A stretch of DNA of 64,000 nucleotides from GCF_056746865.1 NZ_CM163382.1; one strand, 5' to 3'; counted from the first letter of the stretch, positions 16,782 through 36,192 are shown. Notes: generated from the letters alone by a model not told the origin. Numbers and translations are program-made.

Positions 16782-16902
16782 GTGCAGCCTGAAAAACAGT
16801 GCTGTGCCCTTGTAACTCATCATAATAATTTACGGCGCAGCCAAGATTTCCCTGGTGTTGGCGCAGTATTCGCGCACCCCGGTCTAGCCGGGGTCATTTT
16901 TT
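16782..16902 (+). ncRNA. arcZ: ArcZ small RNA (Hfq-dependent), 3' end convergent with and overlapping arcB stop
   Basis: Sequence GTGCAGCCTGAAAAACAGTGCTGTGCC…GGCGCAGTATTCGCGCACCCCGGTCTAGCCGGGGTCATTTTTT matches the ArcZ sequence as I recall it, including seed region and intrinsic terminator. Confidence 0.8.
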
Positions 16903-25390: not shown

Positions 25391-26821
<1,431 letters not shown>

Positions 26822-27004
26822 GCTCTGTCCCAGCGCCGCCTCCTCAGAAAAGAGTCGGCGCTGAAATTCTCCTTTCTTTCTGGAAAGCGCCTCGCATAAT
26901 CTGAAGAAAACCAATGTAATACGCTCATCTGGATTGTTACCGGCAGATGCCCGGCGTATAGCTGATTCCATTATTCAACACAGCGCCATAAAAAGGGACA
27001 GATA

Positions 27005-28132
27005 ATGGAATCGCTCTCAGAGAGAACCACAGCAGGCTACCAGCAAATCCACGACGGCATTATTCATCTGGTCGATAGCGCCCGAACGGAAACGGTACGT
27101 AGCGTTAACGCGTTAATGACCGCGACGTACTGGGAAATTGGCCGACGAATTGTCGAATTTGAACAAGGCGGTGAGGCCAGGGCTGCGTATGGTGCGCAGC
27201 TAATCAAGCGACTATCAAAGGATTTAAGTCTAAGGTATAAGCGTGGGTTCTCTGCAAAAAACTTACGCCAAATGAGGCTTTTTTACCTCTTTTTTCAACA
27301 TGTTGAAATTCGCCAGACAGTGTCTGGCGAATTAACACCATTGGGAATGCCGCAGACACCGTCTGCAGAATTCCCATCGGCAAAGATTTGGCAGACGCTG
27401 TCTGCCAAATCTTTCCCCCTGCCCTGGTCCACCTACGTCCGTCTACTTTCCGTTAAAAACGCTGACGCCCGCAGCTTTTATGAAAAAGAGACGCTCCGCT
27501 GTGGTTGGTCTGTCCGCCAGCTAGAGCGGCAAATTGCGACCCAATTTTATGAGCGAACACTACTGTCACATGATAAATCAGCCATGCTGCAACAACACGC
27601 TCCTGCCGAGATGCATATTCTTCCGCAGCAGGCGATACGCGATCCCTTTGTGCTCGAATTTCTGGAATTGAAAGATGAATACTCAGAATCCGATTTTGAG
27701 GAGGCGCTGATCAACCACCTGATGGATTTCATGCTGGAACTTGGGGATGATTTTGCCTTTGTTGGTCGGCAGCGAAGGTTACGCATTGATGACAACTGGT
27801 TTCGGGTCGATCTGCTGTTTTTCCACCGCCGTTTACGCTGCCTGCTAATCGTCGATCTAAAAGTGGGCAAATTTAGCTATAGCGATGCCGGACAGATGAA
27901 TATGTATCTCAACTACGCCAAAGAGCACTGGACGCTACCGGATGAAAATCCGCCCATCGGTCTGATTCTCTGTGCAGAGAAAGGAGTCGGAGAAGCGCAT
28001 TATGCACTGGCTGGTTTGCCTAACACCGTTCTGGCGAGTGAATATAAGATGCAACTACCTGATGAAAAACGACTCGCGGATGAACTCGTTCGAACACAGG
28101 CGGTGCTAGAGGAAGGCTATAGACGCCGATAA
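27005..28132 (+). CDS. yhcG: DUF1016-family protein with C-terminal PDDEXK-like nuclease fold
   Basis: 375-aa ORF MESLSERTTAGYQQIHDGIIHLVD…; length and sequence match YhcG as I recall it; contains the internal tandem palindromic repeat. Confidence 0.8.
   Translation: MESLSERTTAGYQQIHDGIIHLVDSARTETVRSVNALMTATYWEIGRRIVEFEQGGEARAAYGAQLIKRLSKDLSLRYKRGFSAKNLRQMRLFYLFFQHVEIRQTVSGELTPLGMPQTPSAEFPSAKIWQTLSAKSFPLPWSTYVRLLSVKNADARSFYEKETLRCGWSVRQLERQIATQFYERTLLSHDKSAMLQQHAPAEMHILPQQAIRDPFVLEFLELKDEYSESDFEEALINHLMDFMLELGDDFAFVGRQRRLRIDDNWFRVDLLFFHRRLRCLLIVDLKVGKFSYSDAGQMNMYLNYAKEHWTLPDENPPIGLILCAEKGVGEAHYALAGLPNTVLASEYKMQLPDEKRLADELVRTQAVLEEGYRRR
27307..27411. repeat. three diverged 39-bp tandem units, each with a ~25-27-bp palindrome (GCAGAC…GTCTGC core), in-frame within yhcG
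   Basis: Seen directly: AATTCGCCAGACAGTGTCTGGCGAATT (27307-27333), CGCAGACACCGTCTGCAGAATTC (27351-27373), GATTTGGCAGACGCTGTCTGCCAAATC (27385-27411); centres ~39 bp apart. Confidence 0.85.
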
Positions 28133-32876: not shown

Positions 32877-33668
32877 TTATTTCTTTTTGTTGGTGCTCTG
32901 ACCGAAGGCATGCCAGGTAGCAGAGACGCTGTTGAGATGCGATTGCAACGCGCGATCGGCTTCATCGGGATCATGGCGGCGGATCGCGTCAACGATCGCA
33001 ATATGCTGTTGATAGCTAACGTTGTTATGCTCGTGCAGAGCCTGATCAGCCACGGTTGGACGTGCGGCGATCAGCCAGTCGAGCAAGGCAACGTGGATCG
33101 CCATGAAGATTGGGTTACCGGGGATCTCCGCCAGCACGCGGTGGAAATCAACGTCTGAACGAATGAATGCCGCGTTGTTATCCAGCGACTGACTGTTGAT
33201 TTCCAGTGCTTTTGCCAGCAAATCGATTTGCTCATCGGTGGCGTGTTCAGCCGCATAGCGCACCAGGCTGGATTCAAAGAACAGACGTAATTGTTCGAAA
33301 TGGGCAATCCCACCAGGATGAGAAAGGAAATCTTTCGCCATGCCGGAAAGCTCGCCGATGATGGTGTCCGCAGAAGGACGTGAGACGCGAGCGCGTTCGC
33401 CGTTGTTTATTTGCACCAGACCTTTACGTTTTAACGCTGCCAGCGCTTCACGCACCGAAGGACGCCCGACATTAAAGAACGCCATCAGTTCGCGTTCAGA
33501 CGGTAATTGTTCACCTTCGCCAAATTCACGACGGCGGATCATCTGTTCCAGCTCTTCTTCCACCATTTCGGAGAGTTTTTTACGCGCCAGCGGGCGGCTA
33601 CGCAAGTTGCGACCAATTGCAGGTGAAGAATCTTCGGTTTGCGAATCAAATGCGTTCATAAGGCCCAT
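32877..33668 (-). CDS. nanR: GntR/FadR-family repressor of sialic acid catabolism
   Basis: 263-aa ORF with N-terminal HTH (GntR) and FCD domain, upstream of nanA. Confidence 0.9.
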
Positions 33669-33774
33669 TCTGTAAGGTCAGTGTGATTAACATCATCAGT
33701 GACATCCTATCACAGGATTGAAAGTAGGGGAAAATGGCAGGGTTTTCTCTTTGTGCCTCATCATTACCATAATT

Positions 33775-33783
33775 AACGGAATA
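33775..33783. repeat. IS1 target-site duplication, left copy (AACGGAATA)
   Basis: Identical 9-mer directly flanks both IS1 termini. Confidence 0.85.
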
Positions 33784-33798
33784 GGTAATGACTCCAAC

Positions 33799-34302
33799 TT
33801 ATTGATAGTGTTTTATGTTCAGATAATGCCCGATGACTTTGTCATGCAGCTCCACCGATTTTGAGAACGACAGCGACTTCCGTCCCAGCCGTGCCAGGTG
33901 CTGCCTCAGATTCAGGTTATGCCGCTCAATTCGCTGCGTATATCGCTTGCTGATTACGTGCAGCTTTCCCTTCAGGCGGGATTCATACAGCGGCCAGCCA
34001 TCCGTCATCCATATCACCACGTCAAAGGGTGACAGCAGGCTCATAAGACGCCCCAGCGTCGCCATAGTGCGTTCACCGAATACGTGCGCAACAACCGTCT
34101 TCCGGAGCCTGTCATACGCGTAAAACAGCCAGCGCTGGCGCGATTTAGCCCCGACGTATCCCCACTGTTCGTCCATTTCCGCGCAGACGATGACGTCACT
34201 GCCCGGCTGTATGCGCGAGGTTACCGACTGCGGCCTGAGTTTTTTAAATGGCGGAAAATCGTGTTGAGGCCAACGCCCATAATGCGGGCGGTTGCCCGGC
34301 AT
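33799..34302 (-). CDS. insB: IS1 transposase InsB reading frame (expressed as InsAB' by -1 frameshift)
   Basis: 167-aa [28 protein letters not shown]… overlapping insA 3' end in the -1 frame. Confidence 0.85.
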
Positions 34303-34496
34303 CCAACGCCATTCATGGCCATATCAATGATTTTCTGGTGCGTACCGGGTTGAGAAGCGGTGTAAGTGAACTGCAGTTGCCATGTTTTACGGCAGTGAGA
34401 GCAGAGATAGCGCTGATGTCCGGCAGTGCTTTTGCCGTTACGCACCACCCCGTCAGTAGCTGAACAGGAGGGACAGCTGATAGAAACAGAAGCCAC
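34221..34496 (-). CDS. insA: IS1 InsA transcriptional repressor / transposase N-terminal part
   Basis: 91-aa [46 protein letters not shown]… (zinc finger + HTH). Confidence 0.9.
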
Positions 34497-34551
34497 TGGA
34501 GCACCTCAAAAACACCATCATACACTAAATCAGTAAGTTGGCAGCATCACC

Positions 34552-34560
34552 AACGGAATA
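34552..34560. repeat. IS1 target-site duplication, right copy (AACGGAATA)
   Basis: Identical 9-mer to 33775-33783. Confidence 0.85.
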
Positions 34561-34824
34561 ATTAACTATTGCGAAAAATTAATGTAACGCAGATAAAAAC
34601 ATCCCGATTGAATTATTTATAAGACTATTCACGAGCATTATGAATATTATGAATGTGTTCTTACAAAATAATCATAAGCGCATATTTTTTAATGAAAAAT
34701 CACCTCACCTACAATTAAAAACACGACATCCGCACCATAAATAACCTTGCAAAAAATATAACATCATTGTTTTCAATCTGCCGTTTATGGGATTGACCGT
34801 TTTCTTTTGACACGGAGTTCAACA

Positions 34825-36192
34825 ATGTTCGGCATAATTATATCTGTCATCGTATTAATTACGATGGGCTATTTGATCCTGAAAAACTACAAACCTCAGG
34901 TGGTGCTGGCTGCCGCAGGTATCTTCCTGATGATGTGCGGTGTCTGGTTAGGGTTCGGTGGTGTGCTCGATCCCGCCAAAAGCAGCGGCTACTTGATCGT
35001 CGATATTTATAATGAAATCCTGCGCATGCTGTCCAACCGCATTGCTGGATTGGGGCTGTCGATTATGGCAGTGGGCGGTTATGCCCGCTATATGGAGCGC
35101 ATAGGGGCAAGTCGCGCGATGGTGAGCTTGTTAAGCCGCCCGTTAAAACTCATTCGCTCGCCGTATATTATTCTGTCGGCAACTTACGTCATCGGCCAAA
35201 TCATGGCGCAGTTTATTACCAGCGCCTCCGGTCTGGGTATGTTGCTGATGGTCACCTTATTTCCGACGCTGGTGAGTCTGGGAGTAAGTCGTCTCTCTGC
35301 GGTGGCGGTTATCGCAACCACCATGTCCATTGAGTGGGGGATTCTGGAAACGAACTCCATTTTTGCTGCCCAGGTCGCAGGAATGAAAATTGCCACTTAC
35401 TTCTTCCACTACCAGCTTCCGGTCGCCTCTTGCGTCATTATCTCGGTGGCGATCTCCCACTTTTTCGTGCAACGCGCTTTCGACAAAAAAGATAAAAATA
35501 TCAATCACGAACAGGCAGAGCAAAAAGCTCTCGATAATGTCCCGCCGCTCTATTACGCCATTTTACCGGTGATGCCGTTAATCCTGATGCTCGGCTCGCT
35601 GTTCCTTGCCCACGTCGGGCTGATGCAGTCAGAACTGCATCTGGTGGTGGTGATGTTACTGAGTTTGACGGTGACGATGTTTGTTGAGTTCTTCCGCAAG
35701 CATAACTTGCGCGAAACAATGGATGATGTGCAGGCGTTTTTTGACGGCATGGGTACGCAGTTTGCCAACGTGGTAACGCTGGTGGTCGCGGGTGAAATAT
35801 TTGCGAAAGGCTTAACGACGATTGGCACTGTCGATGCGGTTATCAGGGGTGCGGAGCATTCTGGTCTGGGCGGTATTGGCGTGATGATTATTATGGCGCT
35901 GGTCATTGCCATTTGTGCCATTGTGATGGGCTCAGGCAATGCGCCGTTTATGTCATTTGCCAGTCTTATTCCGAATATCGCAGCCGGACTACATGTGCCA
36001 GCGGTTGTAATGATTATGCCGATGCATTTTGCCACGACGCTAGCGCGCGCTGTTTCGCCGATTACTGCGGTGGTGGTCGTTACGTCAGGAATTGCAGGCG
36101 TTTCGCCTTTTGCGGTAGTGAAGCGGACAGCGATCCCCATGGCAGTCGGTTTCGTGGTGAATATGATTGCCACAATCACGCTATTTTATTAA
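34825..36192 (+). CDS. dcuD: DcuC-family C4-dicarboxylate transporter
   Basis: Start at ATG 34825 ([11 protein letters not shown]…, 455 aa) preceded by GGAG; the ORF-track start at 34807 is a TTG. Confidence 0.88.

Follow-up and report, generated by a model that had tools for sequence, protein, structure and literature searches.

The window analysed here, i.e., the whole stretch of 64,000 nt taken from GCF_056746865.1 (NZ_CM163382.1) and read on one strand 5' to 3', comes from an E. coli lineage and carries the genes nanR-dcuD-sspB-sspA in the same order as K-12. The repressor gene nanR is divergent from the carrier gene dcuD, and an intact IS1 element is lodged between the two, its IRR tip 115 bp from the nanR ATG (Table 1). 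The dcuD product scores 1030 bits against NF007317 (cut-off 623), with residues 1-455 of 455 matched, and stays under the cut-off of the true-DcuC model NF007937; the full-length match together with synteny identifies the gene as the dcuD orthologue. Its ATG at 34825 is the start given by RefSeq for an identical allele. The PGAP name for this gene is 'dcuC'.

The native intergenic region spans 379 bp at 33% GC, compared to 52% for the whole window, and IS1 divides it into two unequal parts. The dcuD-proximal part (30.4% GC) matches the empty-site allele L021 at 100% identity, i.e., it is unchanged by the insertion, and the remaining 106 bp are now found on the far (nanR) side of the element. 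The original prediction placed the IRL end about 270 bp before the dcuD ATG, which proved exact at 273 bp (34552-34824). Its further statement that a 264-bp AT-rich leader had been left intact is right for the DNA downstream of IS1 (273 minus the duplicated 9 bp gives 264) but not for the leader as a whole, as the other 106 bp, together with the only published dcuD promoter, lie beyond the element. No known RNA element was found in the 273 bp with Rfam at gathering thresholds, and the sole match in the window is located elsewhere, the ArcZ sRNA (RF00081, 120 bits) at 16782-16889 beside arcB. In strain HSP60 a different IS1 copy is present just past arcB, near the position matching ArcZ. A further peculiarity of this lineage is seen at 26821-27005, where yhcG directly follows gltD and the K-12 block gltF-yhcA-yhcD-yhcE-yhcF is absent.

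Table 1. Features of the nanR-dcuD locus in window coordinates, followed by mapped IS1 alleles in coordinates of the empty-allele reference (ref; orientation relative to the window)
Feature	Position	Strand or orientation	Details
nanR, GntR-family repressor of the sialic-acid regulon	32877-33668	-	263-aa ORF; NCBIfam NF003011 NanR, 408 bits; RefSeq annotation of identical allele
Published sigma54-type dcuD promoter	33735-33762	+	TGGCAGGGTTTTCTCTTT at 33735-33752; EcoCyc start site C at 33762
Candidate hybrid promoter facing nanR	33769-33797	-	TTGGAG (33797-33792), 17-bp spacer, AATTAT (33774-33769); 7/12, consensus only
Target-site duplication, left copy	33775-33783	no strand	9 bp AACGGAATA
IS1 (IS1B-type), intact	33784-34551	-	768 bp; sequence reading and script
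IRR tip of IS1	33784		nanR side; GGTAATGACTCC...; sequence reading and script
insB frame	33799-34302	-	NCBIfam NF033558 IS1 transposase
IS1-borne sigma54-dependent promoter	33834-33918	-	Start site 33858; reads through IRR towards nanR, not dcuD
insA	34221-34496	-	91 aa InsA
A6C frameshift motif AAAAAAC in insA	34239-34245	-	IS1 position 307
Outward -35 box TTGGCA in IRL	34538-34543	+	8 bp from tip, facing dcuD
IRL tip of IS1	34551		dcuD side; ...GGCAGCATCACC; sequence reading and script
Target-site duplication, right copy	34552-34560	no strand	9 bp AACGGAATA
Interval from IRL tip to dcuD ATG	34552-34824	+	273 bp, dcuD-proximal part of the native 379-bp intergenic region
dcuD, DcuC-family C4-dicarboxylate carrier	34825-36192	+	455 aa; NCBIfam NF007317; RefSeq coordinates
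Exact IS1 hot site CTGTCATCG	34844-34852		dcuD codons 7-10, ref 1191; unoccupied in this window
Simple insertion	ref 864-871	same	K-12 C3026
Simple insertion	ref 899-907	same	This window
Simple insertion	ref 1155-1164	same	AH01, 258E, WP2-W18-CRE-03
Simple insertion	ref 1191-1199	same	GmM062
Simple insertion	ref 1868-1875	same	TUM1586
Simple insertion	ref 864-871	opposite	042 lineage, 14 genomes
Simple insertion	ref 1001-1008	opposite	UTAK-5
Simple insertion	ref 1191-1199	opposite	Evo1 and CP137705; S1-CAM-01-C; FDAARGOS_1282
Deletion allele	ref 872->1191	same	EC2641
Deletion allele	ref 886->1191	same	FDAARGOS_943
Deletion allele	ref 907->1157	same	CFSAN061770
Deletion allele	gltD->ref 1191	same	TOE3
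Deletion allele	yhcG->ref 1191	same	2015-01-2097
Deletion allele	ref 868->1191	opposite	PRO_A-1443, fS25a
Deletion allele	ref 985->1820	opposite	ABWA45, ECONIH4, CX21
Deletion allele	yhcF->ref 725	opposite	F95

The IS1 element and the origin of its allele

The element bears all the hallmarks of the IS1 family, i.e., its length and terminal inverted repeats (18 of the first 23 nt match between the two ends), an A6C frameshift leading to a product of 232 aa, and a target-site duplication with a matching empty site. The duplication is a perfect 9-bp direct repeat of AACGGAATA (this and the repeat comparison by script). Both the insA and the insB frame match NCBIfam NF033558, and InsAB' was reconstructed at 232 aa after the -1 frameshift, its genes being transcribed towards nanR and away from dcuD. 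The copy is also 100% identical to the RefSeq-annotated IS1B element of strains EC31 and EF5-18-41. It is an intact, ordinary mobile element. No second IS1 copy was found within the 64-kb window, and a composite transposon was rejected for this reason.

The insertion and the surrounding 24.9 kb are 100% identical in EC31 (meat duck, China) and EF5-18-41 (chicken, Laos). The empty site occurs with 100% identity over 2,539 bp in 2017C-4173W12, where the intergenic region measures 379 bp, and HSP60 (among others) presents it on the very same 24.9-kb haplotype. Given these identical empty-site alleles, the insertion is the outcome of one recent simple transposition and not a chance resemblance. 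A third state is found in CFSAN061770 (cheese, Egypt), which shares the haplotype and the left junction and whose IS1 is identical; ~250 bp beside IRL are deleted there (window 34552 to ~34811; L008 3463-3530), leaving only 13 bp between the IS1 tip and the dcuD ATG. On this branch transposition was followed by an IS1-adjacent deletion. One haplotype accordingly provides a natural allelic series (empty site, insertion, insertion plus deletion), which amounts to a cheap test both of a dcuD promoter in the proximal 273 bp and of the reality of the reported sigma54 promoter. An IS1 polymorphism beside a gene that is not essential is in itself routine, and the copy is already annotated as IS1 transposase in RefSeq genomes.

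Promoters and outward signals on the dcuD side

The only promoter reported for dcuD is of the sigma54 type. Zhao, Liu & Burgess (2010) list the gene among 18 known sigma54-dependent genes, place the promoter, aaaaTGGCAGGGTTTTCTCTTTgtgc, between -313 and -296 relative to the start codon (their Table 1) and report, from microarrays, a 12.5-fold increase upon sigma54 overexpression and a 3.3-fold decrease in an rpoN deletion (PMC2831329). The EcoCyc string for this promoter (PMC12316311 supplement) has a 78-nt exact match at 33704-33781 and is then broken by IS1. The reported promoter lies on the nanR side of the element, its start site 22 bp before the IS1 tip, i.e., IS1 sits at about +22 of the reported transcript, between promoter and gene, and the leader counted from the reported start is lengthened from 286 nt to ~1,063 nt, crossing IS1 antisense to insAB'. 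Classically, IS1 exerts polarity in either orientation. Since the element interrupts the reported transcript at such an early point, reduced dcuD expression is predicted, and its placement between dcuD and the only reported promoter would mean less sigma54-dependent expression, not more.

The promoter is weakly founded. Compared to the consensus TGGCAC-N5-TTGCW, its TGGCAG fits the -24 element, and the -12 element reads TCTCT, in which the conserved G of GC is missing. A sigma54 ChIP-seq study detected no peak in this intergenic region, nor did it confirm most of the promoters predicted earlier (PMC4591121). Owing to the non-consensus -12 element and the absence of a ChIP-seq peak, the reality of this promoter is uncertain. 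Should it prove spurious, there would be no "decoupling" of dcuD to speak of, and the retained 273 bp may harbour the true promoter. An IHF-like site, TATCACAGGATTG (33708-33720, one mismatch to WATCAANNNNTTR), is located ~15 bp upstream of the -24 element and ~20 bp from GGGTTTTC, a site that IS1 has used elsewhere (see below). We discarded IHF as a determinant of IS1 hot spots, as this single near-consensus site is too weak for such an argument.

The original prediction held that the insertion could alter dcuD expression, IS elements being known to create hybrid promoters or relieve silencing, and its labelling of this as inference only was apt. An activation of a cryptic dcuD would come about either through a hybrid promoter (a -35 box in IRL joined to a -10 in the flanking DNA) or through the disruption of an upstream silencer (such as H-NS). 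The general premise agrees with the IS1 literature, in which the ends of the element are described as bearing an outward -35 box able to form hybrid promoters (PMC9330008; Prentki 1986 via PMC8764528). Such a promoter arises only if a -10 is found at the right distance, and in ST131 the outcome differed between genes, with afaA raised, osmB lowered and ugd unaffected (PMC8764528). Here, the outward -35 box is present in IRL, but the hexamers at spacers of 16-18 bp (AATTAA, ATTAAC, and TTAACT) all fail to combine A2 with T6 and none can be taken as a -10. No junction-spanning promoter reaching 8/12 was recovered at the IRL/dcuD junction by either the tool scan or a relaxed scan, and a hybrid promoter at this position was rejected. 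The junction is, moreover, 273 bp from the ATG. Few plus-strand sigma70-like candidates exist inside the 273 bp, they reach at most 8/12, and they are the same in the empty allele. Independent alleles with IRL only 13-18 bp from the ATG (AH01-type and CFSAN061770) might appear to speak for activation, and the latter does form a 9/12 hybrid, TTGGCA-16-AACAAT; its -10, however, overlaps the dcuD ATG, and the start site would fall inside the ORF.

Relief of silencing finds its model in the bgl operon, a silent operon activated by IS1 and IS5 (PMC11043490). The likeness, shared with the known hybrid promoters, consists of a gene reported as silent, an AT-rich upstream region (30% GC here), an IS1 ahead of the ORF, and a -35 box directed outwards. 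The bgl insertions, however, were obtained under selection and hit a defined silencer, at a position upstream of the promoter, whereas here IS1 follows the only promoter reported (start site 33762), and the bgl-type arrangement would apply only if another promoter lay within 34552-34824. Nor does a suitably spaced -10 exist at this junction, the insertion is not known to have been selected, and dcuD is destroyed in half of the sister alleles. The literature searched contains no paper linking H-NS and dcuD, its matches being a sigma54 ChIP table and a GalR site list. What survives of the original prediction is the general point that an insertion inside the control region of dcuD could alter its expression; the two specific activation mechanisms find no support in the arrangement seen here.

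Recurrent IS1 insertion and the dispensability of dcuD

To place this allele among others, 5,426 complete E. coli genomes were surveyed with orientation-matched queries for IS1 between or in nanR and dcuD. IS1 was encountered there in ~38 of them, in ~16 distinct alleles and in both orientations. An apparent orientation bias, a possible hint of selection, was discarded, since the first query joined pieces per strand and could return same-orientation hits only; a synthetic query with the IS1 reversed yielded at least 22 genomes in the opposite orientation, i.e., there is no orientation bias. Twenty loci were mapped onto an empty-allele reference that covers nanR to dcuD and lacks IS1 and one of the two duplication copies, in which the target site of this window corresponds to ref 899-907 and the dcuD ATG to ref 1172 (Table 1, where a->b denotes deletion end points). 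The IS1 copies at the locus differ from each other at up to 72 of 768 positions.

Zerbib and colleagues in 1985 and Gamas and colleagues in 1987 are said to have described a regional preference of IS1 for AT-rich DNA together with local hot spots. The most heavily used position at this locus is CTGTCATCG, within the first codons of dcuD, with at least 6-7 independent uses in both orientations and by different IS1 variants. It overlaps a perfect palindrome, CATCGTA-TTAAT-TACGATG (34848-34866), with a predicted DNA hairpin of -5.6 kcal/mol (z-score -3.4). A second reused site, GGGTTTTC (33740-33747), was hit twice, in K-12 C3026 (SHuffle) and, reversed, in the EAEC 042 lineage; as it lies in the spacer that separates the -24 from the -12 element of the sigma54 promoter reported for dcuD, this promoter is split in those strains. 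The deletion end points ref 868 and 872 are close to it. If each of the 64,379 chromosomal IS1 copies in the collection is counted as an independent event and all are distributed evenly over 5 Mb, ~0.013 events would be expected per site. A comparison with control regions would be confounded by purifying selection at other promoters, and the recurrence at exact sites was used instead.

The documented target preference of IS1 is for AT-rich DNA only (PMC5009759), and our locus resembles the known cases in its 8- or 9-bp duplications, its AT-rich setting, the use of both orientations, and the relatively G/C-containing duplicated cores flanked by A/T runs. It differs from the known hot spots in the reuse of a chromosomal site with single-base precision, at least 6-7 times in natural isolates, beside a palindrome with a 7-bp stem. 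To our knowledge, reuse of this kind has not been described previously, and the literature searched holds no instance of it. So far the choice of targets by IS1 has been described only as "AT-rich", and codons 7-10 of dcuD, with their hot site, could offer a model system for studying it. The recurrence between nanR and dcuD could also be partly due to selection rather than target preference.

Many of the IS1 alleles at the locus truncate or delete dcuD, in at least 10 lineages, and about half of the insertions destroy the gene. The intergenic region is disrupted in 70 of the 4,380 genomes possessing it. By megablast, dcuD has no match in 1,041 of the 5,426 genomes (19%) and is covered over less than 80% in 34 more, and as all matches are at least 95% identical, this represents a presence/absence polymorphism, in agreement with the listing of dcuD as an "extended-core" gene (PMC12595684). 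As had been stated in the original prediction, PMC12886548 and PMC6414658 (citing Janausch & Unden 1999) describe dcuD as lacking evident expression or silent. Given that the gene is truncated or deleted in many alleles, absent from 19% of genomes and reported as not evidently expressed, insertions here are tolerated and dcuD is dispensable. Its silence in the wild type is a matter of some ambiguity, as the literature calls it "silent", yet sigma54-dependent changes appear in the microarray data (PMC2831329) and phenotypes of dcuD mutants are reported (PMC6414658).

Readings of the insertion

Taken together, we consider, with a probability of about 0.6, that this is a recent, lineage-specific, intact IS1 in a preferred AT-rich target beside a cryptic and dispensable dcuD, most likely neutral or inhibitory for that gene; a near-neutral insertion in an IS1-prone region would be the best reading of the locus. 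IS1 would have landed here because the AT-rich stretch is a preferred and repeatedly used target, and insertions would persist because dcuD is cryptic and can be spared. The element leaves the proximal 273 bp untouched and brings no usable outward promoter to the dcuD side. The only promoter reported for dcuD is now 777 bp further away, this added stretch being untranslated IS1, and a transcript from there would have to cross IS1 antisense to insAB'. The intuitive view of an IS placed upstream of a silent gene is thereby corrected, since IS1 separates dcuD from this reported promoter and the outward signals of the element are turned towards nanR. It appears more likely that IS1 cuts dcuD off from this promoter than that it switches the gene on, the direction and size of any change in expression being inferred from the sequence. 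Among the points against this reading are the weak foundation of the promoter and the observation that adaptive laboratory evolution (ALE) on succinate reportedly selected dcuD mutations (PMC12886548).

The functional target of the insertion might instead be nanR, if the native promoter candidates of this gene were split or displaced and IS1 signals substituted for them, altering NanR levels and the repression of the nan regulon. We regard this as a minor possibility, somewhat doubtful in itself but compatible with a near-neutral insertion as far as dcuD is concerned, so the two are not exclusive. A regulatory effect on nanR would be at least as plausible as one on dcuD, because the outward-reading signals of IS1 all point to nanR. 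In the empty allele every minus-strand sigma70-like candidate found in the scan lies at or beyond the insertion point, and IS1 splits one of them, TTCGCA-18-AATTAT; in the occupied allele, TTGGAG in IRR stands 17 bp from AATTAT. Transcription from P(IRL) through insAB' is likewise directed at nanR. The element further carries a sigma54 promoter that is aimed at nanR and matches the EcoCyc "flhD" sigma54 promoter string at 85 of 85 nt. These calls, however, are consensus matches of only 7-9/12, and no mapped nanR promoter was found in the literature searched, Horne 2021 saying nothing on it. In addition, P(IS1) is very weak and repressed by InsA (PMC12428005).

A close parallel to the sigma54 promoter exists in K-12. 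In E. coli K-12 MG1655 an IS1 is inserted ahead of flhDC, as reportedly described by Barker and colleagues in 2004. The sigma54 promoter inside that copy was mapped by primer extension, and its transcript was observed only under sigma54 overexpression (Zhao et al., PMC2831329), which weighs against an effect on nanR. Both cases have the same element in a regulatory intergenic region, with an identical internal sigma54 promoter and outward signals across IRR, but in MG1655 it is flhDC, with its raised expression, that faces IRR, whereas here IRR faces nanR and IRL faces dcuD. A role of nanR also draws on an IS5 insertion in the same intergenic region, which arose twice in lines evolving to recruit NanK, became fixed in one, and was read by its authors as nan-regulatory (bioRxiv 10.64898/2026.02.02.703383). 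That case is alike in the region hit and in the IS being read as changing the regulation of a neighbour, and differs in the IS family, in the laboratory selection, and in the attribution to nanR/nan regulation and not to dcuD. Loss-of-function mutations of nanR are readily selected as well (PMC10519446). Insertions at the dcuD end, on the other hand, cannot act on nanR, and the recurrence as a whole would be left unexplained.

A second alternative is that the loss or decoupling of dcuD is advantageous in some niches, the recurrent IS1 hits being selected loss-of-function events. The 10 or more lineages with truncating or deleting alleles and the absence of the gene from 19% of genomes are in line with this, as is a dcuD deletion reported (cited in PMC6414658) to improve H2 and ethanol yields. 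In strain OkiPb01679 (L023 3436-4763) an IS2, with its transposase reading towards dcuD, occupies the dcuD start codon, i.e., a different IS family likewise targets the 5' end of the gene, and this too would suit selected loss. We nevertheless think it improbable, as the exact reuse of a 9-bp site in both orientations by different IS1 variants points to target specificity and a gene reported as unexpressed offers selection little to remove.

Equally little credence can be given to a more far-reaching proposal, according to which nanR-dcuD is a structure-directed "landing pad" of IS1 (guided by the palindrome at dcuD codons 8-14, or by DNA that sigma54 or IHF bends near the reported promoter) with adaptive rewiring of nanR. 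If it were true, nanR and sialic-acid catabolism would be rewired via IS1-borne sigma54 or hybrid promoters, and the cryptic dcuD permanently uncoupled. The activation of dcuD by this IS1 is just as unlikely, given the arrangement of the junction and of the reported promoter set out above and given that the use of both orientations, scattered positions and about half destructive alleles is not the pattern of selection for activation.

A last observation concerns IS1 itself. The best two sigma70-like sites in the AT-rich interval are found on its minus strand at 34637-34698 (TTTTCA-16-TATGAT and TTGTAA-18-CATAAT), and both are directed towards IRL and insAB'. Read-through from upstream reportedly increases IS1 transposition (PMC12428005).
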